DNA of 64,000 bases, taken from Candidatus Poribacteria bacterium. Its GTDB lineage: Bacteria > Poribacteria > WGA-4E > WGA-3G. The translations under genes and the position numbers were made by a program. Positions within the stretch are counted from its first letter, which is position 1. Every line of letters begins with the position of its first letter. Of the stretch, positions 48,118 to 64,000 are shown piece by piece. Where the stretch lies: contig OZ219753.1 of the NCBI GenBank assembly GCA_964291315.2, positions 1,888,001 to 1,952,000 on the forward strand, written 5' to 3'. The notes under the pieces are model-generated. The model was not told the DNA's origin and ran no database searches. It saw only the letters and a program-made list of their open reading frames with translations.

Positions 48118-48251
48118 ATGCGTGTAATGTGGAAATTTTCCACTAACCTTTGAAAAATACCAGATGTTTTCTGGTTTAAACCCCTCGGTGAATCCAAATT
48201 TTGCTTAGGTTCACCAAACTGTATTACAAAACGCAAAGGAGACAAATTTTA

Positions 48252-49085
48252 ATGAAAAGCTTTTATCTATGGACAATAGGAATCGCCACGATCCTACTAC
48301 TCCCTATCGCAACCTTACAACCCGTATTCGCACAAGCAAACGATATCGTCGGAGGCCCCTTGAAAAAAGACGAACTCATGGAAGACCCACAACCCAACGC
48401 TGACGGCCAGAGAGAGAGTCACAATGACGTTGATACGTGGATTACCAAGTGGTACGGCCCCGACGGCAATTACGAAAACAATGGAGGGTTTCCCGCCTCC
48501 GCACCCAAAGACCTGATCGACGAAGGCACTGGCGGTAAATTGACGCAAGTCAAACTTTCCACAAGTGCAGGATTACAGCTCACCCAAACCGTTGATATGA
48601 AATGGAAGGGAGCGAACGGCGGAACTCGAAAATGGACCGTCTTTGAGCTCGACCCCGCAGACGGAAACAACATGAACCGGGGCGGTCCCGTAGATAACAT
48701 TGACACTTATGGGATTATCGTCCTTAACTCGCCTGCCGCCCAAAAAGCCATCATGTCCCCCGCACACGACGATCACGCCCAAATTTGGATCAACGGCGAA
48801 AAGTGGTACAATAACTCCAAATGGACAGGCGCAGCACAAACAGTGCTTCACAACGTCGAAATTGACTTGAAAAAAGGAGCTAACATCCTCCTCTACCGAG
48901 TCGGCGAATCAGGCGGATCCGCTTATATCAACCTCCATTTTGATGAAGACACCCACAAATCCGTTAAAATCTATCCAGACAAATCCGACGACCAAGACAG
49001 CTTCTTTCAAGAAATCCAAGGAGTACTTGATGTCGAACCGAAAGGTAAGCTCACAACCGTTTGGGCAGACGTTAAACGGAAATAA
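48252..49085 (+). CDS. exported protein with C-terminal GKLTTVWADVKRK motif
   Basis: AAAGGAGA RBS before ATG 48252; signal peptide (VFA-Q); HDDHAQIWING beta-sandwich-like core. Confidence 0.8.
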   Translation: MKSFYLWTIGIATILLLPIATLQPVFAQANDIVGGPLKKDELMEDPQPNADGQRESHNDVDTWITKWYGPDGNYENNGGFPASAPKDLIDEGTGGKLTQVKLSTSAGLQLTQTVDMKWKGANGGTRKWTVFELDPADGNNMNRGGPVDNIDTYGIIVLNSPAAQKAIMSPAHDDHAQIWINGEKWYNNSKWTGAAQTVLHNVEIDLKKGANILLYRVGESGGSAYINLHFDEDTHKSVKIYPDKSDDQDSFFQEIQGVLDVEPKGKLTTVWADVKRK

Positions 49086-49272: not shown

Positions 49273-50106
49273 ATGAAAAGATTTGATACCTTAGCACTCA
49301 CAATCGTGACGGTCTTCGCGTTAAGTATGACCTTATCACACCTCGCATTCTCACAGGCCAACCTCATCCAGGGCGGACCGCTAGCTGAAGACATGCTCCT
49401 AGAAGACCCCGAACCTAACGCCGACACACAGAGAGAAGACCGCAGCGCCGTAGACACCTGGATCACCAAGTGGTACGGACCCGACGGCAACTATGAGGAA
49501 AACGGCGGCTTCGCAACTTCAGCACCAATGGACCTGATCGACGAAGGCACCGGCGGCACACTCAACCAAGCATCGCTCTCAACCCTCAATGGACTCCTCA
49601 TGACGCAAGACATGGTCGTGGAATGGGGCGACGACCACGGCGGCCCAAGAAACTGGTCCGTTTTTGAAATCGACCCCACCGACGGAAATAACATGAACCG
49701 TGAGGGACCCGCGGATAACTTCGATGGATACGGGATTATCGTCATCGATTCACCCAGCGATATGACTGCTATCATGTCGCCCGCACATGATGACCACGCA
49801 CAAATCTGGATCAACGGCGAAAAATGGTACAACAACTCCCGATGGACAGGCGCAGCACAAACAATCCTTCACGATGTCGAAGTTGAATTGCAAAAAGGTG
49901 CCAACGTTCTCGTCTACCGACTCGGCGAATCAGGCGGGTCTGCATACTTGAACTTGCACTTTGATGCCGCAACAACCGATGCGGTTACCATCTATCCACA
50001 CGATGCAACCGATCAAGCCAGCTTCTTCGACGAAATCCTCCCACTGGCTGCCGTCGAAGCCACCGGAAAACTAACCACTACCTGGGCAGATATCAAACGC
50101 AAGTAG
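49273..50106 (+). CDS. exported protein, tandem paralog, C-terminal GKLTTTWADIKRK
   Basis: Long identical blocks with upstream gene (DTWITKWYGPDGNYE, MSPAHDDHAQIWINGEKWYNNS). Confidence 0.85.
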   Translation: MKRFDTLALTIVTVFALSMTLSHLAFSQANLIQGGPLAEDMLLEDPEPNADTQREDRSAVDTWITKWYGPDGNYEENGGFATSAPMDLIDEGTGGTLNQASLSTLNGLLMTQDMVVEWGDDHGGPRNWSVFEIDPTDGNNMNREGPADNFDGYGIIVIDSPSDMTAIMSPAHDDHAQIWINGEKWYNNSRWTGAAQTILHDVEVELQKGANVLVYRLGESGGSAYLNLHFDAATTDAVTIYPHDATDQASFFDEILPLAAVEATGKLTTTWADIKRK

Positions 50107-53382: not shown

Positions 53383-54135
53383 ATGCGAATCAAAATCCTC
53401 GCTGATGTTAAAGGCGGACTCACGCTCCCGATCAACTACAACCACACCCTCACCGGCGTTATCTACCATTACCTTGCCGAATCCGACCCAAAATACGCCA
53501 ATTTCCTACACAAGAAGGGTTACGTCAACGAGCGCAAACAGTTCAAACTCTTCACCTTTTCGCAGCTCATGGCGGAACACAGAAGCCTCATCGGCGACCG
53601 AATCCACTTCGGCTCAACCTTAACCTGGTACGTCTCCTCTCCGGTAGAGACCTTCCTACACCACTTCGCCAATACGCTGCTAACGGGGGGCACCTTGAAC
53701 CTAGGAGAACACCGGCTGCCAATCAAAAATGTTAATGTGCCTCGTACACCGCGCTTCCAACCACAGATGCGTTTTCGGTGCCTCTCCCCGATGGTAATGA
53801 CCACCGTGCGTGAGCGAGCCGGAAAACGAGTCATGCACTACTGCCTCCCGGACGACCCCGCATTCTCCGATCTCGTCCGTCAAAACCTAATTCGCAAGCA
53901 TGAGGTCATCCACGGCCGTCACCCAACCGATGCGACCTTCACCCTCGAATTCGACAAGAATTACATCGCTAGAAGACACGGGCGCGTCACACGTCTCGTA
54001 GACTACAAAGGTGTCAAAATCCGGGGGATCTTATGTCCACTGACTATTTCTGGCAGTAGGGCATTGATTCAAACCGGCTACGAGTGCGGCTTCGGCGACA
54101 AGAACAGCGCCGGCTTCGGCATGGTAGAAGTCTAA
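53383..54135 (+). CDS. cas6: CRISPR endoribonuclease Cas6
   Basis: LPINYNH, FKLFTFSQL, G-rich loop GFGDKNSAGFGMV. Confidence 0.95.
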   Translation: MRIKILADVKGGLTLPINYNHTLTGVIYHYLAESDPKYANFLHKKGYVNERKQFKLFTFSQLMAEHRSLIGDRIHFGSTLTWYVSSPVETFLHHFANTLLTGGTLNLGEHRLPIKNVNVPRTPRFQPQMRFRCLSPMVMTTVRERAGKRVMHYCLPDDPAFSDLVRQNLIRKHEVIHGRHPTDATFTLEFDKNYIARRHGRVTRLVDYKGVKIRGILCPLTISGSRALIQTGYECGFGDKNSAGFGMVEV

Positions 54136-54211: not shown

Positions 54212-55624
54212 ATGCCAATCTATGAAAAACTAATGGGAAATCCATTTGTTGATGCCGGGGTATCTGGTATCTGTGAATGGTTGGGACGCAGTGTCCAACC
54301 GGAACAGATTACTGAAAAGGATCTTGGGAAAATTGTCGACGAATTCCTTCCTATGGCGACAAACTGGGAAAAGTGGACTTCAATTTTCACAATAAACCAT
54401 CCATTGACAAACGGTAGAAAGAGCGAGCGTGTGCCACAGTTCAAGAGAAGACTACTTGGATACATTGACCAAACTATAGAGCTCGGAAAAGTTGGGGATT
54501 GTATGGGATGTGGTAGACGTGATGTAGGTGAAACACCTTTACTTGACAGAACAGGAGCTCCTTTAACAGGCGGGAAGAATAGTAACTTTTTCCCGATCTT
54601 TTCAGAGGGAGCCGGTTATTGCGCCGCTTGCAGCTTTGCGATCCAGTTCTTACCTCTTTCCTTAGTTGCGACTGGTAGTAGTGGTGGCAGATTCCTAATG
54701 CTTCACTCCCAGTCTTGGGAACTTATGCAGGTTTGGACAATATGTTGTCTCAAAGGTTTTCGACAACAATACACTCAACAAAAATTGAGCAGCTGTTTTA
54801 AGCCTAATTATGAAAATTCTCGCAACGGTCTGTTTTACATGGTACGAGAGATGATTATCGAACTTGAGGAAAGGCAGCTCGATGACGAAATCGATAAAGA
54901 TGTATCCATGGAGGTCTATTCCTTTACAAATAACAATCAGTACCCTGGTATCGATATTTTTTATATCCCATCTTCAGTCTTTAAATTTCTGTGTCAGGCT
55001 GAACAGAATCCCTATAAAGAGGACTGGCACAGAATTGTCAAAATCGGTTATGGAAAAGGGAGACCTGAAAAACACTACCAGAAAACAAGAAACCTTGTAT
55101 ATGAGTATTTATTAGAAGACAGATCTATTCGTGGTTTTTTTCTCAATCGACGAGAACAAAAATCACGCGGAAATTGGAAATTGCTCTCTCTTTACTTAAT
55201 GGAGGTAAGAAAAATGAAGCCAGCACGGATTGAGAAAATCAAGCAGGTCGGCGATTTAATTGCAGAAAGTATCCGTAAATCTGAAAAACGCGGCAAAACG
55301 AGACTTGGGAATCTTGCAGACGCCGAAACGTACGCCGACTGCCGCAAAGCTTTATTACGCATCGTTGAAGATAGAATTCGGCAAAAAGAAGCTGAACCCT
55401 TATTTTCATTCGATGATTGTGTCGAACATATTTTCATTTCAGACGATGATATTGTAACTTGGAGCGACGAATTGGATGATGGTGAACTAGATGATGAACA
55501 AAAAGAACAGTTCATGCATGCTGTGAGCGATAACGTCACGTTTTGGCGTGAGACTCGCGACCTATTACTCTTTCGGATTTATGAAAAACTTCACAACTGG
55601 TTAACTGAACAGGAGGAAGATTAA
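54212..55624 (+). CDS. cas8b1: type I-B large subunit Cas8b1/Cst1
   Basis: GNPFVDAG, CxxC...CxxC (CMGC, CAAC), position between cas6 and cas7. Confidence 0.85.
   Translation: MPIYEKLMGNPFVDAGVSGICEWLGRSVQPEQITEKDLGKIVDEFLPMATNWEKWTSIFTINHPLTNGRKSERVPQFKRRLLGYIDQTIELGKVGDCMGCGRRDVGETPLLDRTGAPLTGGKNSNFFPIFSEGAGYCAACSFAIQFLPLSLVATGSSGGRFLMLHSQSWELMQVWTICCLKGFRQQYTQQKLSSCFKPNYENSRNGLFYMVREMIIELEERQLDDEIDKDVSMEVYSFTNNNQYPGIDIFYIPSSVFKFLCQAEQNPYKEDWHRIVKIGYGKGRPEKHYQKTRNLVYEYLLEDRSIRGFFLNRREQKSRGNWKLLSLYLMEVRKMKPARIEKIKQVGDLIAESIRKSEKRGKTRLGNLADAETYADCRKALLRIVEDRIRQKEAEPLFSFDDCVEHIFISDDDIVTWSDELDDGELDDEQKEQFMHAVSDNVTFWRETRDLLLFRIYEKLHNWLTEQEED
55214..55624 (+). CDS. cas11: putative internally translated small subunit Cas11
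   Basis: GGAGGT at 55201-55206 and in-frame ATG at 55214; 136-aa helical C-terminal domain. Confidence 0.7.
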   Translation: MKPARIEKIKQVGDLIAESIRKSEKRGKTRLGNLADAETYADCRKALLRIVEDRIRQKEAEPLFSFDDCVEHIFISDDDIVTWSDELDDGELDDEQKEQFMHAVSDNVTFWRETRDLLLFRIYEKLHNWLTEQEED

Positions 55625-55626
55625 CC

Positions 55627-56652
55627 ATGTCTAAGCACCTTATTGGATTAACCCTAATTGATGCGCCTTATTCCGCGTTGAACAATGATGAAGAACCAAG
55701 GAATAGCCGGTATGATAATCAAGTTGTTGTCAAAACCCTTAAGAAAGGACGTAGGCTAGGTATCTATCCCTATGTTTCCGGGCAAGCATGGCGGAACTGG
55801 TGGCGGACCACACTTGTGCATGAGTTTGACAATTGGAATAATTCACCGATTGAGCGCGCAGACAAAGTTGCCTATACTAAGGCTGATCCCGTAACATATG
55901 ATGACGACGATGTGTTTGGGTATATGCGGGCGGAAAAAAGAGAGGACACTGATGTGACAGTAACTCGTTTATCGCCCCTTAAATGTTCCCCCCTTATCTC
56001 CATTTCTCCACAAATTCCAACGAATGATTTTGGAGTCATGGCCCGCCAAGACGGTGATCCTGTACCTTATAAACACCAATTTTACTCTTGTGTTTTACAA
56101 GGCATCTTTTCCTTAAATCTCGACGCAGTTGGTGTGTTCTCAGCTATAAACAGAACAGGCTATAAAAATATTCTCCACAGCTATATTCCAACTATTGAAG
56201 CCGCGCATGGAACAAGAGAGAATGAAAATTCCCCGTGGGTTCTCCCCAAAGAAACTCGCGTTCGGCGTTGTAGACAAACCCTCGAAGCACTTCCTATCCT
56301 TACGGGAGGGGCTAACCTGACTTCACACCTCACTGACGTTACACCGAAATTGATCATTCTATCGGTGCTTAACGGCGGCAACCACCCCTTCATGAACCTG
56401 GTTGTCGAACGAGACGGAGCAGGACAACTCAGTCTTGAGGCACTCCGCGAGGTCGTTAACGATTATGCCGACCGCTTCTGTGATGCAATTTACATCGGCA
56501 GACGCACCGGATTTATGGATGAACGCCATACCGATCTGACTGAATTCGCAAATGACACAGCTCTCCCCTGCGATGTGGTTTACGATACGCCCAACAATGT
56601 CATCGCCCAACTTTCACAAACGCTAGAGAACCACATCGGAGATTCGCCATGA
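55627..56652 (+). CDS. cas7: Cas7/Cst2/DevR backbone subunit
   Basis: YPYVSGQAWRNWWR, DDDVFGYMRA, TRLSPLK, TDVTPK. Confidence 0.93.
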   Translation: MSKHLIGLTLIDAPYSALNNDEEPRNSRYDNQVVVKTLKKGRRLGIYPYVSGQAWRNWWRTTLVHEFDNWNNSPIERADKVAYTKADPVTYDDDDVFGYMRAEKREDTDVTVTRLSPLKCSPLISISPQIPTNDFGVMARQDGDPVPYKHQFYSCVLQGIFSLNLDAVGVFSAINRTGYKNILHSYIPTIEAAHGTRENENSPWVLPKETRVRRCRQTLEALPILTGGANLTSHLTDVTPKLIILSVLNGGNHPFMNLVVERDGAGQLSLEALREVVNDYADRFCDAIYIGRRTGFMDERHTDLTEFANDTALPCDVVYDTPNNVIAQLSQTLENHIGDSP

Positions 56653-57443
56653 AAGTAATTCGGGTTCATCTCACCGGTTGGGTCGCGTCTTTTCGGAATC
56701 CGCTATTTATTAGCGGATTCCAACCGACGCTCCCTTTACCGCCACTCTCGACACTCTATGGATTGCTTACCGCTGCAAAAGGGGACTGGATTACACCACA
56801 TGATGCCAAAATCGGGTTTGTCTTCCAAAGCAACGGGAAAGGGGTTGACCTAGAAACTGTCTACGAGTTTGACCAAACTTTGAGCCCAAAATCTAGGATA
56901 AACCAGCAGCAATCTGGCTCCGGGTCTTCAAGAACGTTCTACTCAATGTCTATGAAACCTAACATAAAAAAACGTGAATTTCTTGTCGATCCCCAACTTT
57001 ATCTCTATAGCCCAGAAATGTGGTTACAAGAAGCATTTGAAAGACCATACTATCCCATACTATTAGGACGATCCTCTGATCTGGCAACTGTGAAATCCAT
57101 AGAGAAAATTGAGTTGGAAAGCAGAACGGAAACAACTTATCGAGACACAATAGTACCCTTTCCTGATCCGCAACTTTATGGACAAATGCTGGCACTCCCT
57201 ACGCACTTCACATCAGAGATACCTCGTAGACCCTGCGGCACCCGCCCTTACTACCTCATAACGGAACCGATTCCGTACACCGGTAATGTATTACATGACC
57301 CTGACATGAATTGGGGAGTCTATCTGCACCAACGCATTCCAGGGGAGTTTGTGATCCCAACTCTTCCAACGAGGAGACCTGTTGACAAAAACCATTCAGT
57401 TCCCGACCTGAACGGAGAACAGATGCCGCTCTTTGACTACTAA
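56649..57443 (+). CDS. cas5: type I-B Cas5 with C-terminal extension
   Basis: ASFRNP, TLPLPPLSTLYGLL, REFL, LLGRSSDL. Confidence 0.93.
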   Translation: MKVIRVHLTGWVASFRNPLFISGFQPTLPLPPLSTLYGLLTAAKGDWITPHDAKIGFVFQSNGKGVDLETVYEFDQTLSPKSRINQQQSGSGSSRTFYSMSMKPNIKKREFLVDPQLYLYSPEMWLQEAFERPYYPILLGRSSDLATVKSIEKIELESRTETTYRDTIVPFPDPQLYGQMLALPTHFTSEIPRRPCGTRPYYLITEPIPYTGNVLHDPDMNWGVYLHQRIPGEFVIPTLPTRRPVDKNHSVPDLNGEQMPLFDY

Positions 57444-57461: not shown

Positions 57462-59714
57462 ATGTCCATGCTATTGGCAAAGAGTCTTCCCAAAGTGGAA
57501 ACTCTTCACGAACACACAGAGAATTGCCTTGACATATACAACAGCCTCAAAGAACGAATGCCGTTCTTAGCTGAAATTGCAAAAAACCCTGATTTCTTTA
57601 ATCACCTCTTTTATGCCGTTGCACTACACGATTTCGGAAAAGCAGCGACGGGATTTCAAAAGCAACTTACCCATCGTAAGCAATGGAACTACCGCCACGA
57701 GATTCTCTCCGCTGGGTTTGTTGCGGGGCTTCAACTCCACAAATCAGAAAAAGAGGCAATCGGACTTGTCATTTTAACGCATCATAAAGACGTTGATACC
57801 CTCAGACATACCTACCGCCATTATCCTGAGAATATTGAAGGATTTCAAATCTGGCAAGAGAAAATCGAAGAATTAGAAGAACATTGGGAACAGTTAATGA
57901 TAATTCAGAAACAAGTGACTATTTGGTGCCCCATGGAAGAATGTTTATGGACCCCAGTCGCTTCAACTGACCAACTTGTTAACGGTTACCAACATTTTCT
58001 ACTGCCTTATCGTAAGGATAAAAGAAAGACTGAAAGAACCGGTGAAAGGACTTCTTTACACAGCACATACGGCATGCTCCTCCGCGGATGCATGATCGCC
58101 TGTGACCATCTCGCTTCAGCCGGAAAAAACGAAATCCATACCGCACTCGACAACATGGAAGCAAACCTTATACAACACCTCGAAAATAGAATGACAGAAA
58201 GAGGACAACACTTTCAGGACTGGGAGGACTTTCAAAAAACCGCCAGCCAAACAACCACACAACTCATGCTCTCCGCACCAACAGGATCCGGCAAAACCGA
58301 AGCCGCACTCCTCTGGTCACATAAAAACCAGTCTGAAACACTCGGCAACCGTGTTTTCTATGTTTTACCCTACACCGCAAGCATCAATGCCATGTATAAG
58401 CGCATAAAAGAAATTGTATCTGACGAAAAAATCGGTATGCTGCACGGCAAAGCCTCCTACTTCGTTTATCAGCAGCTCGCTGACAAAAGTTGTAACTACC
58501 GAGAAGTCGCAGCCGAAGTCCGAACGCAGCAGAACCTGACCAAAAAAATCTGTCGCCCTTACAAGGTCCTAACCCCCTTTCAGCTCCTGAAAGCCTTCTT
58601 CGGGATCCGCGGCTTCGAAATGCAAATGGCAGAAATGTCTAAAGGGCTCTTTATCTTTGATGAAATCCACGCTTACGACCCGCACACAACCGCCCTCATC
58701 TTAACAATGATGAAGAGACTCAAGAATGACTACGGCGCAAAATTCTGCATCATGACCGCTACAATGCCACACTTCCTCAAACAGAAAATTAGCGAAGTAC
58801 TTGGCGAACCTACACAAATTGAAATGGCAGCCGAAGAACGCGATAAATTTACACGCCACCGGGTGCAATTAATAGATGGAAACATCCAAACTACAACTCC
58901 CTTGATTCGAGAACGCCTCACACAAGGAAATACGGTATTGGTCGTTTGCAATACTGTCCGCCAAGCTCAAACCATGTTTAAAGAATTGCGGGACGTAAGC
59001 GACAACGCAAAAATACTTCACAGCCGATTTATTCTAAAAGACCGCGAGCGGATTGAAAAAGAACTCGATAACACCAATTTACTGGTAGGAACACAAGCAG
59101 TGGAGGTATCGCTGGATATTGATTTCGACTGCCTCTTTTCCGAACCCGCACCCATCGATGCCCTCATCCAACGTTTCGGTCGAATCAACAGAAAACGCCA
59201 AAAAGGAATCTGTGATGTCTACATCTGCAAAAACGGAGGCGAAAACGATCACTTCATCTATTCCACACAAAGAATTCAACGCACCCTAAACGCATTGAGA
59301 ACTGTAGACACCCTGCACGAATCCAAAATTCAGAACCTAATTGATGCTGTCTACTGCAAAGGTTACAATGAAAAGGAACAGGAGAAATATGACAAAGCAG
59401 AACAAGCGTTCGATCACCACCTGAAAAACATTTTTCCCTTTATCGAGGACAAATCCGGACGGGACGAATTTGGGGAACTTTTCAAAAGCATCAGTGTTGT
59501 CCCCTCTATTTTTGAGAACAATTACTTAGCTCATATCACAGCGAAAGAGTATTATGAGGCCATGGCTTATGTGGCACAAATTCACGCCTATCAATTTAAA
59601 CAGCTGCGTCAAGACGGGCAACTCTATGAACTTAAAAAGCAATGGTTCACAAAACTTGACTATGATGAAACACTCGGTCTAATTTTAGAAAAACACAGCA
59701 CAAATATTTTATAG
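57462..59714 (+). CDS. cas3: Cas3 HD nuclease-helicase
   Basis: HDFGK, RHE, HH, DHLAS; APTGSGKT, DEIH, MTAT, QRFGRINR. Confidence 0.96.
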   Translation: MSMLLAKSLPKVETLHEHTENCLDIYNSLKERMPFLAEIAKNPDFFNHLFYAVALHDFGKAATGFQKQLTHRKQWNYRHEILSAGFVAGLQLHKSEKEAIGLVILTHHKDVDTLRHTYRHYPENIEGFQIWQEKIEELEEHWEQLMIIQKQVTIWCPMEECLWTPVASTDQLVNGYQHFLLPYRKDKRKTERTGERTSLHSTYGMLLRGCMIACDHLASAGKNEIHTALDNMEANLIQHLENRMTERGQHFQDWEDFQKTASQTTTQLMLSAPTGSGKTEAALLWSHKNQSETLGNRVFYVLPYTASINAMYKRIKEIVSDEKIGMLHGKASYFVYQQLADKSCNYREVAAEVRTQQNLTKKICRPYKVLTPFQLLKAFFGIRGFEMQMAEMSKGLFIFDEIHAYDPHTTALILTMMKRLKNDYGAKFCIMTATMPHFLKQKISEVLGEPTQIEMAAEERDKFTRHRVQLIDGNIQTTTPLIRERLTQGNTVLVVCNTVRQAQTMFKELRDVSDNAKILHSRFILKDRERIEKELDNTNLLVGTQAVEVSLDIDFDCLFSEPAPIDALIQRFGRINRKRQKGICDVYICKNGGENDHFIYSTQRIQRTLNALRTVDTLHESKIQNLIDAVYCKGYNEKEQEKYDKAEQAFDHHLKNIFPFIEDKSGRDEFGELFKSISVVPSIFENNYLAHITAKEYYEAMAYVAQIHAYQFKQLRQDGQLYELKKQWFTKLDYDETLGLILEKHSTNIL

Positions 59715-59806: not shown

Positions 59807-60316
59807 ATGCAAAACCCAGAATATACCAACATCACCGGCACAGCCATTAACTATCTCTACGTCTGCACACGCAAACTCTGGCTCTATCAACACCATCTTG
59901 AAATGGAGCATACCTCCGAAGCTGTGAACCTCGGACAGCACCTTCACGAACAGAGCTACACCCGTGAAAAACGCAGAGAATGGCGTATCGACGACCTCAT
60001 CCAAATAGACTTTGTCGATAAACACGGCGTCCTTCACGATATCAAGTCCGGCCCAGCGATGGAAACCGCACATATCATGCAGCTCTGTTATTATCTGTAT
60101 CTGCTAAAACAGAAGGGCGTACCCAACCGGAAAGGGGTCATCAACTATCCACGCCAACGCCGCACCACAGAAGTCGAACTCACGCCAGAAAGAGAACAGG
60201 AACTCGAAACCGCCATTGAAAAAGTGAACCACATCGCCACGCTGCCAACACCACCCCATGCCGACTACATGAAAATATGCAAGTCATGTAGTTATCAAGA
60301 GCTCTGTTGGAGCTAA
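59807..60316 (+). CDS. cas4: Cas4
   Basis: YVCTRKLW, QLCYY, CKSCSYQELC. Confidence 0.94.
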   Translation: MQNPEYTNITGTAINYLYVCTRKLWLYQHHLEMEHTSEAVNLGQHLHEQSYTREKRREWRIDDLIQIDFVDKHGVLHDIKSGPAMETAHIMQLCYYLYLLKQKGVPNRKGVINYPRQRRTTEVELTPEREQELETAIEKVNHIATLPTPPHADYMKICKSCSYQELCWS

Positions 60317-60412
60317 AGCGAATAAACACGCGCGGTGTGCTGCCCGCAATATAAACGCTGGCGCACAACTCTTAGCACTTATTCTTATAGCTATGCATCA
60401 AGGAAACAAATT

Positions 60413-61408
60413 ATGTCACGCAACTACTACATCACTCAACCCGGCAGCTTGCGACGGAAAGATAACACACTTTATCTACAACCAGAGCAGGCTCCTCGTA
60501 TCCCCATTCCCATAGAGGATGTCGACGCACTCTACTTCTACGGGGAACTCGACCTCAACACAAAGCTCCTTAATTTTCTTGCACAGAAGCACGTCGCCTT
60601 TCACGTCTTCAACTACTACGGCTACTATTCCGGCAGTTATTATCCGAGAGAATATCTCAATTCCGGTTCGCTTCTCGTTAAACAGGTGCAGCATTATGAA
60701 AAGAGGACCAAACGCATGTCACTCGCTCACGAGTTTGTCGCCTCCGCGGGATTCAACATGCTGCGAGTCTTGCGCTATCATACCAATCGCGGTAAAGATT
60801 GCAACCCACAAATCCAAACAATAAAAAAAATACTCACAGAAGCCCGCACCGCGAAAAATACCAACGAATTGATGGGATATGAAGGCAGCATCCGAGACCT
60901 CTACTATACCGCTTTCAATACCATCCTTACCTTACAAACACCCTTGCAAACCCGCACACGGCGCCCACCCGATAACCCTATTAACGCCGCAATCTCCTTC
61001 GGCAACTCCCTGATGTACGCCGCCTGTCTAACCGAAATCTATAGAACCCAGCTCAACCCAACCATCAGCTTCCTACACGAACCCGGCGACAGACGATTCT
61101 CCCTCAGCCTCGACCTCGCAGAAATCTTTAAACCCCTGATTGTCGACCGTATCATCTTCCGACTCTTCAACCGAAAACAGCTCAACGAATCAAAACACTT
61201 TCAAACCGAAGTCGGAGCATGCTACCTCAATCAAACCGGACGCAAAGTGTTTATCGCAACATTTGATGAACAGCTCAAGCAGACCATCTCACACCGAAAA
61301 TTGAAACGCCACGTCTCCTATCAACGCCTTATCCGGCTCGAGTGCTATAAACTCATCAAGCACCTCATGGATATAGAGACCTACCAAGCCCTTCGACCGT
61401 GGTGGTAG
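60413..61408 (+). CDS. cas1: type I-B Cas1
   Basis: RRKDNTL, FNYYGYYSGS, RRPPDNPINA.ISFGN, FLHEP, DLAEIFKP; start at ATG 60413. Confidence 0.96.
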   Translation: MSRNYYITQPGSLRRKDNTLYLQPEQAPRIPIPIEDVDALYFYGELDLNTKLLNFLAQKHVAFHVFNYYGYYSGSYYPREYLNSGSLLVKQVQHYEKRTKRMSLAHEFVASAGFNMLRVLRYHTNRGKDCNPQIQTIKKILTEARTAKNTNELMGYEGSIRDLYYTAFNTILTLQTPLQTRTRRPPDNPINAAISFGNSLMYAACLTEIYRTQLNPTISFLHEPGDRRFSLSLDLAEIFKPLIVDRIIFRLFNRKQLNESKHFQTEVGACYLNQTGRKVFIATFDEQLKQTISHRKLKRHVSYQRLIRLECYKLIKHLMDIETYQALRPWW

Positions 61409-61554: not shown

Positions 61555-61818
61555 ATGTATATCATTCTCGTCTATGATATTCAAACCGATCGCGTCGCAA
61601 AAGTCTGTAAGTATCTGCGACAACATCTCAACTGGATCCAAAATTCTGTTTTTGAAGGACACTTAACCAAAGCCCAGCTCGCGCGCGTCAAATCTGGGTT
61701 AGCCGCACTCACCGATCTCGAAAAAGATTCTATTATTATCTATCAACTCCGCGATGCACGCTGGATGAATAAAGAGGTGATGGGTGTAGATAAGAACCCT
61801 GCCACCAACTTACTTTAA
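61555..61818 (+). CDS. cas2: Cas2
   Basis: AAGGAG RBS; ILVYDI, WIQNSVFEG, DSIIIY. Confidence 0.96.
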   Translation: MYIILVYDIQTDRVAKVCKYLRQHLNWIQNSVFEGHLTKAQLARVKSGLAALTDLEKDSIIIYQLRDARWMNKEVMGVDKNPATNLL

Positions 61819-62188: not shown

Positions 62189-64000
62189 CTTTTAATCGAA
62201 CCAGTATGGAATCGAAACTATTAGCAAGCGTTTTAGGCGGTATTGTGTGCGAAATACTTTTAATCGAACCAGTATGGAATCGAAACGCAGTTGACAGGCT
62301 TCGTAAAGCTTTTGGATTTAAACTTTTAATCGAACCAGTATGGAATCGAAACACACCGGATGCTTATTATGCATTGTTAGAAGGTCTTTTAATCGAACCA
62401 GTATGGAATCGAAACCTGTATCCGCTATCCTAAAAATACCACGCATATCCGACTTTTAATCGAACCAGTATGGAATCGAAACCTGTGTGCGGGGATCAGG
62501 TCGATCGAGATAGCGTTCCTTTTAATCGAACCAGTATGGAATCGAAACTCGCGACACTTTGCTAGCAGTAGAGAGCATGCGTGACAACGACTTTTAATCG
62601 AACCAGTATGGAATCGAAACTGTGGTCATCGTGTCGAAGTCACGATGACAAGCGGAAACTTTTAATCGAACCAGTATGGAATCGAAACTCTTTCTAAATC
62701 CTTTTTGAATGGTGCCCCGCCGTTCTTTTAATCGAACCAGTATGGAATCGAAACGGGCTTTACTGGAACGGTGTCTGTTGTGAGAGTAGTCTTTTAATCG
62801 AACCAGTATGGAATCGAAACCTTAGAATCACGTGAATAACCCAACGGCATCTCAAACTTTTAATCGAACCAGTATGGAATCGAAACTTTTGAATGAGGCC
62901 CCGCCGTTTCGGGCGGGGCGGGGCTTTTAATCGAACCAGTATGGAATCGAAACGAGGTTCAACTTGGCAGGTTTAGGCGTTTTCAAGCTTTTAATCGAAC
63001 CAGTATGGAATCGAAACAATCCAACTTCCAATTCTACGGGGAGACTATCCCCGCTTTTAATCGAACCAGTATGGAATCGAAACCTCCTCGAACCCACCAT
63101 CACCATCGCTGACGATGCACTTTTAATCGAACCAGTATGGAATCGAAACGTTTCTCTAGCCAGCGCAGGCAATCTATCCGAGATAGCTTTTAATCGAACC
63201 AGTATGGAATCGAAACTAGTGGTATCGGCTCTATAACTCGTCACGCCTTGCCTTTTAATCGAACCAGTATGGAATCGAAACTGAACAACGATATATTAAC
63301 TGGCAAATAATCTAACCCTTTTAATCGAACCAGTATGGAATCGAAACCTGGCAAGAAGCGATTTCACAATTAGGGTTGGACCCGCTTTTAATCGAACCAG
63401 TATGGAATCGAAACGATGTTATGCCTACGGAGCAACGTTGGCAACGACACTTTTAATCGAACCAGTATGGAATCGAAACCACCGCTACTGCGGAATACAG
63501 CACCCCTTCCTTAACTTTTAATCGAACCAGTATGGAATCGAAACTTCAGTATCGGGTCGAAGGTAGATCAGTTTTGCTGGCTTTTAATCGAACCAGTATG
63601 GAATCGAAACTCGGCAACGGTGGATAACAACACAGTTTATCTTTACCTTTTAATCGAACCAGTATGGAATCGAAACTCGGCACGCCGTTTGTTTACACCA
63701 AGACCTCGCCTTCTTTTAATCGAACCAGTATGGAATCAAAACCGCGATAACCTTTCGCATCTTTCCACCAGAAATCGCTTTTAATCGAACCAGTATGGAA
63801 TCAAAACGATACTCATTGAGTGTGATACCGCGGTTCTTCGCTTGCTTTTAATCGAACCAGTATGGAATCAAAACTCGTCTAACTCATGTGCTTCGACGTA
63901 AGCATCCACTTTTAATCGAACCAGTATGGAATCAAAACTTGATACGAAGATCAATTGCTTCTGTGAAGGAAAATTCCTTTTAATCGAACCAGTATGGAAT
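62189..64000 (+). CRISPR. CRISPR array, repeat CTTTTAATCGAACCAGTATGGAATC(G/A)AAAC, 28 repeats (last truncated), 27 spacers of 33-42 nt
   Basis: Direct count; 3' ATCGAAAC handle and upstream leader indicate + orientation; continues past window end. Confidence 0.99.

Follow-up and report, generated by a model that had tools for sequence, protein, structure and literature searches.

What does a disordered C-terminal tail add to a subunit of an RNA-guided surveillance complex? The question is raised by a stretch of 64,000 nucleotides, referred to here as the window, from the genome of a Candidatus Poribacteria bacterium, a sponge symbiont (contig OZ219753.1, positions 1,888,001 to 1,952,000). On its plus strand the window carries a complete type I-B cas operon and a CRISPR array. 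The Cas5 subunit of this system continues for 37 residues beyond the fold of its family, and close to its last residue stands QMPLF, a peptide that resembles the motif by which proteins dock on DnaN, the beta sliding clamp. Comparison with relatives and with other proteins of the host suggests that the tail is probably a true clamp-binding motif, which would tether Cascade (the CRISPR-associated complex for antiviral defence) to DNA-loaded DnaN.

A Cas5b subunit with an extension predicted to be disordered

The gene at 56649-57443 is Cas5b, a subunit of the type I-B Cascade. It exceeds the curated cut-off of its family profile, has the Cas5 (repeat-associated mysterious protein, RAMP) fold and lies in an operon with Cas8b, Cas7, Cas3 and an array. 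Residues 1-221 occupy positions 1-217 of the 217 in the TIGR01895 profile, at 136.6 bits against a cut-off of 96.7, and TIGR02593 matches at 51.4 bits against 17.8. Because residues 1-221 use up the TIGR01895 profile, the tail falls outside the family model.

The predicted structure agrees with this assignment. AlphaFold2, supplied with a 121-sequence alignment, gives residues 1 to ~228 as folded (mean predicted local distance difference test, pLDDT, 78.8). A Foldseek search with this model returns a probability of 1.00 to the Cas5 chains of 4tvx, 9cro, 8fcj, 8ip0 and 7tr6; 25 matches have E <= 0.001, with TM-scores that are modest (0.35-0.58), and the top matches are Cas5 chains from type I-E, I-A, I-B and I-C Cascades. 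The fold closes with WGVYLH (residues 222-227, 57312-57329), and in tailless relatives the gene ends 0-11 residues past this point. A lower-confidence part of the model, at residues 84-105 (window 56898-56963), is a 22-residue insertion, INQQQSGSGSSRTFYSMSMKPN, which is present in this Cas5 and its closest relatives (261-272 residues) and absent from the 240-252-residue majority.

Beyond WGVYLH the 264-residue protein runs to its end as WGVYLHQRIPGEFVIPTLPTRRPVDKNHSVPDLNGEQMPLFDY, directly before the stop codon. Residues 231-264 are modelled without secondary structure, at block-mean pLDDT values of 42-52. The initial annotation had described a ~37-residue proline-rich extension that follows WGVYLH and terminates in EQMPLFDY, with QMPLF near its end, and the translated open reading frame (ORF) places each of these elements exactly there: QMPLF comprises residues 258-262 (57420-57434) and leaves two residues, DY, before the C-terminus. 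The peptide fits the pentapeptide Q1-[L/M]2-x-[L/F]4-F5 and is located on a flexible terminal segment.

Conservation of the tail

A word-indexed search yielded 807 Cas5 homologs, and conservation was counted in the best 120, which are 64-100% identical and come from Candidatus Poribacteria wherever the source names the organism. Their tails end in one of two main forms. The first, Qxx[LF]F (the LF type), occurs in 74, and the second, Qxx[LF]P[GS][IL] (the PGI type), in 39, together 113; the remaining seven consist of QMQLD[IL] (three), QTPLF, QGQLPGI, a tail in which L replaces Q, and one truncated record. Within the motif, 118 of the 120 homologs have G256, and 118 have Q258. At position 259, M predominates (96, against 15 with I and 5 with L; 116 with one of the three). 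L (89) or F (30) stands at position 261 in 119 homologs, and F (76) or P (40) at position 262 in 116.

The neighbours of these anchors vary freely. Column entropies reach 2.0-2.4 bits in the linker and are 2.0 and 2.6 bits at the two positions after F262. The last of these, position 264, is I in 45 homologs, S in 24 and L in 19, and Y264 is not conserved. Among the 74 LF-type tails, exactly two residues follow F in 62 and F is itself terminal in 8. A terminal QxxLF kept despite divergence of the linker, which the initial annotation had put forward as the sign to look for, is therefore present in this lineage, in alternation with the PGI ending.

Two further segments are conserved between the fold and the motif (Table 1). 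In the proximal segment (residues 229-237), R229 is kept in 119 of the 120 homologs, G232 in 120, F234 in 120 and P237 in 118; this segment may pack on the Cas5 core. For the distal segment (residues 246-252), the corresponding figures are 111 for K247, 108 for Y249 and 107 for P252.

The ratio of nonsynonymous to synonymous substitution rates (dN/dS) is lowest in the core (0.073), against 0.174 in the motif and 0.227 in the tail as a whole, values that are rough because dS is saturated. They were computed from 28 of the 31 tail-bearing genome sequences, three having been missed by the start-codon pattern and dropped. Since the ratios lie well below 1, the tail is translated, constrained sequence.

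Putative clamp-binding motifs of the host

The host's own replication and repair proteins provide a reference for the motif. Its DnaE (1173 residues) has GQMSLFG at residue 911, which phmmer aligns column for column with GQLDLFG of 5fku_A, the Pol III alpha chain common to entries 5fku, 5fkv and 5fkw. We take these entries to be alpha-clamp-exonuclease-tau complexes and the aligned site to be the internal clamp-binding site. The host MutS (895 residues) carries its motif, LQMTLF, at residue 853, which is 43 residues from the C-terminus, and in 30 genomes of the same family the corresponding site reads QMALF (25), QLALF (4) or QMTLF (1). Because host DnaE, host MutS and most of the related MutS proteins carry QMxLF, Met at position 2, the only point at which the Cas5 peptide deviates from the textbook Q-L-x-L-F, is the normal flavour of this lineage.

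DnaE and MutS thus have the same Q-M-x-L-F pentapeptide as the Cas5 tail, with equal anchors Q, M, L/F and F. Their motifs lie in internal or sub-terminal linkers, whereas that of Cas5 is terminal, and clamp binding by the host DnaE and MutS is itself assigned through positional homology. A Y-family polymerase (PF00817), sought as a further reference, was not found in the 95.2%-complete host genome.

The host has two tandem dnaN genes, at C4:2845782-2846876 and C4:2847112-2848206 (C4 being the contig of the window), which encode 370 residues each and are 97% identical, with 12 differences in 369 aligned residues. Several of these differences presumably fall in segments lining the client pocket. 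Among the other genomes of the taxonomic family, dnaN is found in 110 of 111, mostly in 2-5 copies and often in tandem.

Gain and loss of the tail

The tail is confined to a narrow group. An exhaustive search of representatives gave 297 Cas5b matches; in the best 150, which were examined, four have the tail, namely three fragments from the same clade and the divergent P0151 (41% identical). The other 146 are without it, and the full-length ones among them stop within ~10 residues of the WGVYLH equivalent. The 15 proteins of the P0151 cluster share the ending ..IDKDYVIPT[VF]T[GS]VQELMF, with GVQELMF terminal and the distal segment kept as IDKDYVIP. Two of them have an 11-residue insertion in the linker and still keep this end.

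Within the phylum, 61 of 176 species genomes have a Cas5 match. The C-termini of 50 Cas5b-type loci were read. A tail is present in 31, where the ending is LF in 14, PGI in 13 and degenerate in 4; the remaining 19 are tailless. A maximum-likelihood tree built from the core places the sequences with a tail in one clade of 38 rows, with support of 100/99 and a branch length of 0.52. The tail was added once. The sister clade, also Poribacteria, is tailless, its genes ending in WGVYLHGNSR and a stop, right behind which cas3 begins. At the base of the tail clade stand members of the PGI type, and the LF and PGI endings interchange several times; the LF form of the window is sister to a PGI form (support 97/94).

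The tail has been lost in 7 of the 38 members of the clade. In one genome (G083) the place of Q is taken by a stop codon, behind which MQLFDS, with its own stop, can still be read as a remnant. Another (G078) has the tail deleted, with cas3 coming immediately next. In others, repeat-like DNA follows a truncation.

In the tailless operons of three sister-clade genomes and G078, Cas6, Cas8b, Cas7, Cas5 and Cas3 are collinear and full-length, as are Cas4, Cas1 and Cas2 where the stretch read covers them. Between tailed and tailless systems the other Cas proteins align end to end (Cas8b 456-470 residues, Cas3 742-777 residues), and this comparison revealed no gained receptor domain or segment in any of them. 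Since the tailless operons are collinear and full-length, the tail is best described as one clade's dispensable add-on to an otherwise unchanged Cascade.

These data bear on a caveat of the initial annotation, which had held that a tail absent or unconserved in relatives, for example one made by a lost stop codon, would refute the tethering to DnaN. The caveat applies in part: the tail is absent from the sister clade and from the more distant Cas5b proteins, and clade members have lost it secondarily. A dN/dS of 0.23 nevertheless marks the tail as a clade-specific accessory and not as a lost stop codon.

A proposed route to the sliding clamp and its alternatives

If the tail is a clamp-binding motif, a flexible linker of ~30 residues ending in Q-M-x-L-F, alternating in the lineage with Q-M-x-[LF]-P-G-I, would anchor each type I-B Cascade, through its single Cas5, in the hydrophobic pocket that DNA-loaded DnaN offers its clients. 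In solved Cascades, Cas5 lies at the 5'-handle foot of the complex, proximal to the protospacer-adjacent motif (PAM) and beside Cas8. Because Cas5 stands at the PAM-proximal foot, a clamp on the flanking duplex would lie within reach of the linker. Since clamps accumulate on newly replicated DNA, such a tether would concentrate Cascade on replicating DNA, including phage and plasmid replicons. Alternatively, Cascade might scan while the clamp slides. Either effect would make target finding faster for interference and possibly for primed adaptation, although which step gains is a matter of speculation.

One alternative is that the tail docks on a partner other than the clamp, such as Cas3, Cas8b or its small-subunit product, Cas1-Cas2-Cas4 or a host factor, and that the likeness to clamp motifs is a coincidence. 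This would fit the number of conserved positions, which is larger than a pentapeptide needs (residues 229-237 and 246-252, the latter also in the P0151 cluster), the long branch of the tail clade, as if the subunit had changed along with something, and the replacement of Phe-5 by Pro in a third of the tails. Against it, the other Cas proteins align end to end at similar lengths with no new receptor segment visible, and G078 has dispensed with the tail while its cas6-cas8b-cas7-cas5-cas3 remains intact. The anchors Q, M, L/F and F, moreover, equal those of host DnaE and MutS. A non-clamp partner is accordingly judged unlikely.

A second alternative would need no partner at all: the tail would be a tolerated disordered extension, created by a shift of the stop codon into what had been the spacer between cas5 and cas3, or else a signal at the C-terminus that controls the amount of Cas5 through stability or degradation. 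Confinement to one clade with repeated loss, selection that is relaxed relative to the core (0.23 against 0.07) and a genome-wide number of C-terminal motif matches no greater than in shuffled sequences all point in this direction. A tolerated extension, however, does not readily explain why G256, Q258, M259, L261 and F262 are conserved beside freely varying neighbours, or why dN/dS is well below 1, and the residues on which a terminal degron would depend, those at the extreme C-terminus, are the most variable of all (position 264, 2.6 bits). This alternative is therefore considered very unlikely.

Two other kinds of docking peptide were rejected. The PCNA-interacting peptide (PIP) box does not fit, as only two variable residues follow F262 and there is no aromatic pair at positions 7 and 8. 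An SSB-type tip is an acidic run ending in a terminal hydrophobic-Pro-Phe; here no acidic run precedes the motif, and F is the last residue in just 8 of 74 tails.

Several observations weigh against the docking of Cas5 on the clamp and temper the reading accordingly. The conservation of RIPG-F--P (229-237) and DK[DN]Y-[VI]P (246-252) is not accounted for by a pentapeptide motif. In about a third of the homologs (40 of 120) the consensus Phe-5 is replaced by Pro, giving QMQ[LF]PGI, and a search of the host genome found the PGI form in no other protein. The homologs are kin, so that the conservation counts are not independent, and the saturation of dS limits what the substitution ratios can carry. 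The genome-wide frequency of the motif offers no help either. Q[LMIV]x[LMF]F stands in the last 12 residues of 5 of 4590 ORFs of at least 120 residues, the shuffled mean is 2.4, and at least five such matches arise in 20 of 200 shuffles, so that the count is not above chance; QM.LF occurs anywhere in host proteins 8 times against 4.35 expected. Finally, absence outside the clade and loss in 7 of 38 members imply that any benefit would be conditional.

Genome-wide enrichment of the C-terminal motif was consequently rejected as evidence, its count not being significant, and so was the looser hexapeptide Q[LMIV]x[LMF]x[LIMF], whose matches are mostly unrelated enzymes. The initial annotation had warned that a five-residue match could be chance. 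For the motif alone, which is weak evidence, the warning is sound; conservation in relatives lifts the motif above chance.

The operon, the array and their surroundings

All cas genes of the window match Pfam or NCBIfam families (Table 1). In the window, cas3 starts 18 nucleotides after cas5. In many relatives (loci L021, L023, L024, L028, L030, L033-L035, L038-L040 and others) the cas5 stop is followed not by cas3 but by a recurring element, whose translation reads ..YIVGARSPRP...

Table 1. Coordinates of the cas operon, the parts of Cas5 and the other host genes discussed (window positions unless a contig is named; aa, amino acids)
Feature	Position	Strand	Basis
cas6	53383..54135	+	TIGR01877, E = 2.2e-40
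cas8b1 (Cst1)	54212..55624	+	TIGR01908, E = 5.7e-35
cas7 (Cst2/DevR)	55627..56652	+	TIGR02585, E = 7.5e-60
cas5b, 264 aa plus stop	56649..57443	+	TIGR01895, 136.6 bits (cut-off 96.7); TIGR02593 and PF09704 also match
Cas5 core fold, residues 1-227, ends WGVYLH	56649..57329	+	profile residues 1-221; last AlphaFold2 strand 222-224
Cas5 C-terminal tail, residues 228-264, 37 aa, 6 Pro, predicted disordered	57330..57440	+	AlphaFold2 pLDDT
Proximal conserved segment R-I-P-G-[DE]-F-x-[VI]-P, residues 229-237	57333..57359	+	columns of 120 homologs
Variable linker, residues 238-245	57360..57383	+	column entropy to 2.4 bits; relatives with 3-11-aa insertions or deletions
Distal conserved segment D-K-[DN]-Y-x-[VI]-P, residues 246-252, here DKNHSVP	57384..57404	+	columns of 120 homologs
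Clamp-binding-motif-like G-E-Q-M-P-L-F, residues 256-262	57414..57434	+	columns of 120 homologs; anchors of host DnaE/MutS
cas3 (HD nuclease and helicase)	57462..59714	+	TIGR01587, E = 8.7e-86; TIGR01596, E = 9.8e-24
cas4	59807..60316	+	PF01930, E = 2e-53
cas1 (type I-B)	60335..61408	+	TIGR03641, E = 5e-136
cas2	61555..61818	+	PF09827, E = 6.4e-22
CRISPR array, 30-nt repeat, 33-42-nt spacers	62189..64000, continues past window end	+	28-29 repeat copies in window
DprA, ends EQIGLFEE	C4:199465-200457 (L008)		
C5 cytosine DNA methyltransferase, ends QLLLFRELR	C3:195257-196234 (L072 4258-5235)	-	
N6/N4 DNA methyltransferase, ends NQMAFFESKQ	C4:2907596-2908513 (L071 4097-5014)		
ABC-type ATPase (AAA_21/AAA_15), ends QLDLF	C1:329557-330825 (L003; L070 5058-6326)		

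The window contains 27 copies of an exact 25-nucleotide repeat core, which define 26 spacers, and contig C4 contains 33, the last copy at C4:1952243. One spacer is duplicated within the array, at window 63808-63844 and, just past the window end, at C4:1952142-1952178. A search for self-targets in the host genome found no spacer match outside the array, the duplicate spacer being the only hit, and the two leader-proximal spacers each gave 0 protospacer matches in a viral contig collection. Elsewhere in the window, two adjacent paralogous ORFs at 48201-49085 and 49273-50106 encode 294 and 277 residues with signal-peptide-like starts and share long common stretches, for example VDTWITKWYGPDGNYE.NGGF and HDDHAQIWINGEKWYNNS.WTGAAQT.

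Other host proteins with clamp-motif-like peptides

The five host ORFs that end in the strict pentapeptide all act on DNA: Cas5, DprA, two methyltransferases and an ABC-type ATPase. The C5-methyltransferase directly adjoins a HindVP-type restriction endonuclease, so that here the methylase of a type II restriction-modification system has a clamp-motif-like tail. Near the N6/N4 methyltransferase, no endonuclease is visible in the locus read (L071).

The ATPase has weak MADS3/PtuA-like matches. A DUF4276 protein (L070 6369-7007) comes after it, and before it stands a type III restriction-modification pair (N6_N4 methylase and ResIII). The ATPase is found in 123 of the 176 phylum genomes. In 30 loci that were read, Q-L-x-L-F stands near the C-terminus in 22 and one-residue variants of it in 8; a basic stretch of 15-17 residues follows the motif in 27.

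Similar peptides also occur away from C-termini. A 221-residue ORF at C4:1431327-1431992 starts with MAAKQLDLFPEAF, an N-terminal clamp-motif-like peptide, and three paralogous ORFs of ~1025 residues (C4:1826134-1829214, C4:2894860-2897937 and C4:2609189-2612260) have ARQ[MI]ALFAP at residue 426.

A broader and decidedly tentative proposal, which we regard as doubtful, is that the sliding clamp serves as an immunity hub in this Poribacteria lineage. Several unrelated defence and DNA-marking proteins would each have gained docking tails, the 2-5 dnaN paralogs would be possible dedicated platforms, and defence would be directed to replicating DNA. The members of such a hub may include the type I-B Cascade, through Cas5, the DUF4276-paired ABC-type ATPase and the C5-methyltransferase of the HindVP-type system.

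Comparison with known systems

With the Cas5b of known type I-B Cascades (TIGR01895; 8ip0, 8h67, 8fcj), the system of the window has in common its profile, its fold and its operon order, cas6-cas8b-cas7-cas5-cas3-cas4-cas1-cas2 plus an array. The solved type I-B Cas5 chains have 209-212 residues, whereas the Cas5 of the window adds a disordered tail of 37 residues with a terminal motif.

Cas5 can carry an extra functional module, as the Cas5-HNH Cascades (8zlu, 8zp7, 9jxs, 8yb6) illustrate; these are among the best fold matches. Judging from the entry titles, the added part there is a folded nuclease domain that replaces the function of Cas3. The Cas5 of the window differs in having a disordered linker with a putative docking peptide, and in having Cas3 alongside.

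The archaeal and eukaryotic PIP box (Q-x-x-[ILM]-x-x-[FY]-[FY]) resembles the motif in Q1 and in the aliphatic residue at position 4, and QMPLFDY of the window also has an aromatic residue at position 7. The Cas5 family, however, does not keep aromatics at positions 7 and 8, and the clamp in this host is DnaN rather than PCNA.

How Cascade locates rare targets fast enough in a cell crowded with DNA, and how interference and primed adaptation are linked to replication forks, are open problems. If the tail does bind DnaN, it would provide a natural and testable case of an RNA-guided effector physically coupled to the processivity factor of the replisome, and the nearest parallel would be the way in which Tn7 TnsE and many insertion sequence (IS) transposases aim at replicating DNA. 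Should the motif work, such tails might be grafted onto engineered type I effectors and bias them towards replicating DNA. The initial annotation knew of no such motif on Cas5, and a search of full-text literature, which did not cover subscription-only papers, likewise yielded no account of clamp-binding motifs in Cas5 or in any other Cascade subunit. A known effector family and a known kind of docking motif thus appear to meet here in a combination not described before in the literature searched.

As set out in PMC4549789, the beta-clamp consensus is Q1-L2-x-L4-F5, is usually placed at the C-terminal end and has been gained convergently by IS transposases; the study also reports that such motifs can bind clamps across phyla. 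That study and the work on Tn7 TnsE (PMC10734217) describe features that the Cas5 tail would share, namely a short motif on a flexible terminal segment, gained convergently by a protein outside replication. Unlike the transposase and polymerase clients, the candidate client predicted here from its sequence would be an RNA-guided surveillance complex, with Met at position 2 of its motif and Q-M-x-[LF]-P-G-I as an alternative ending.

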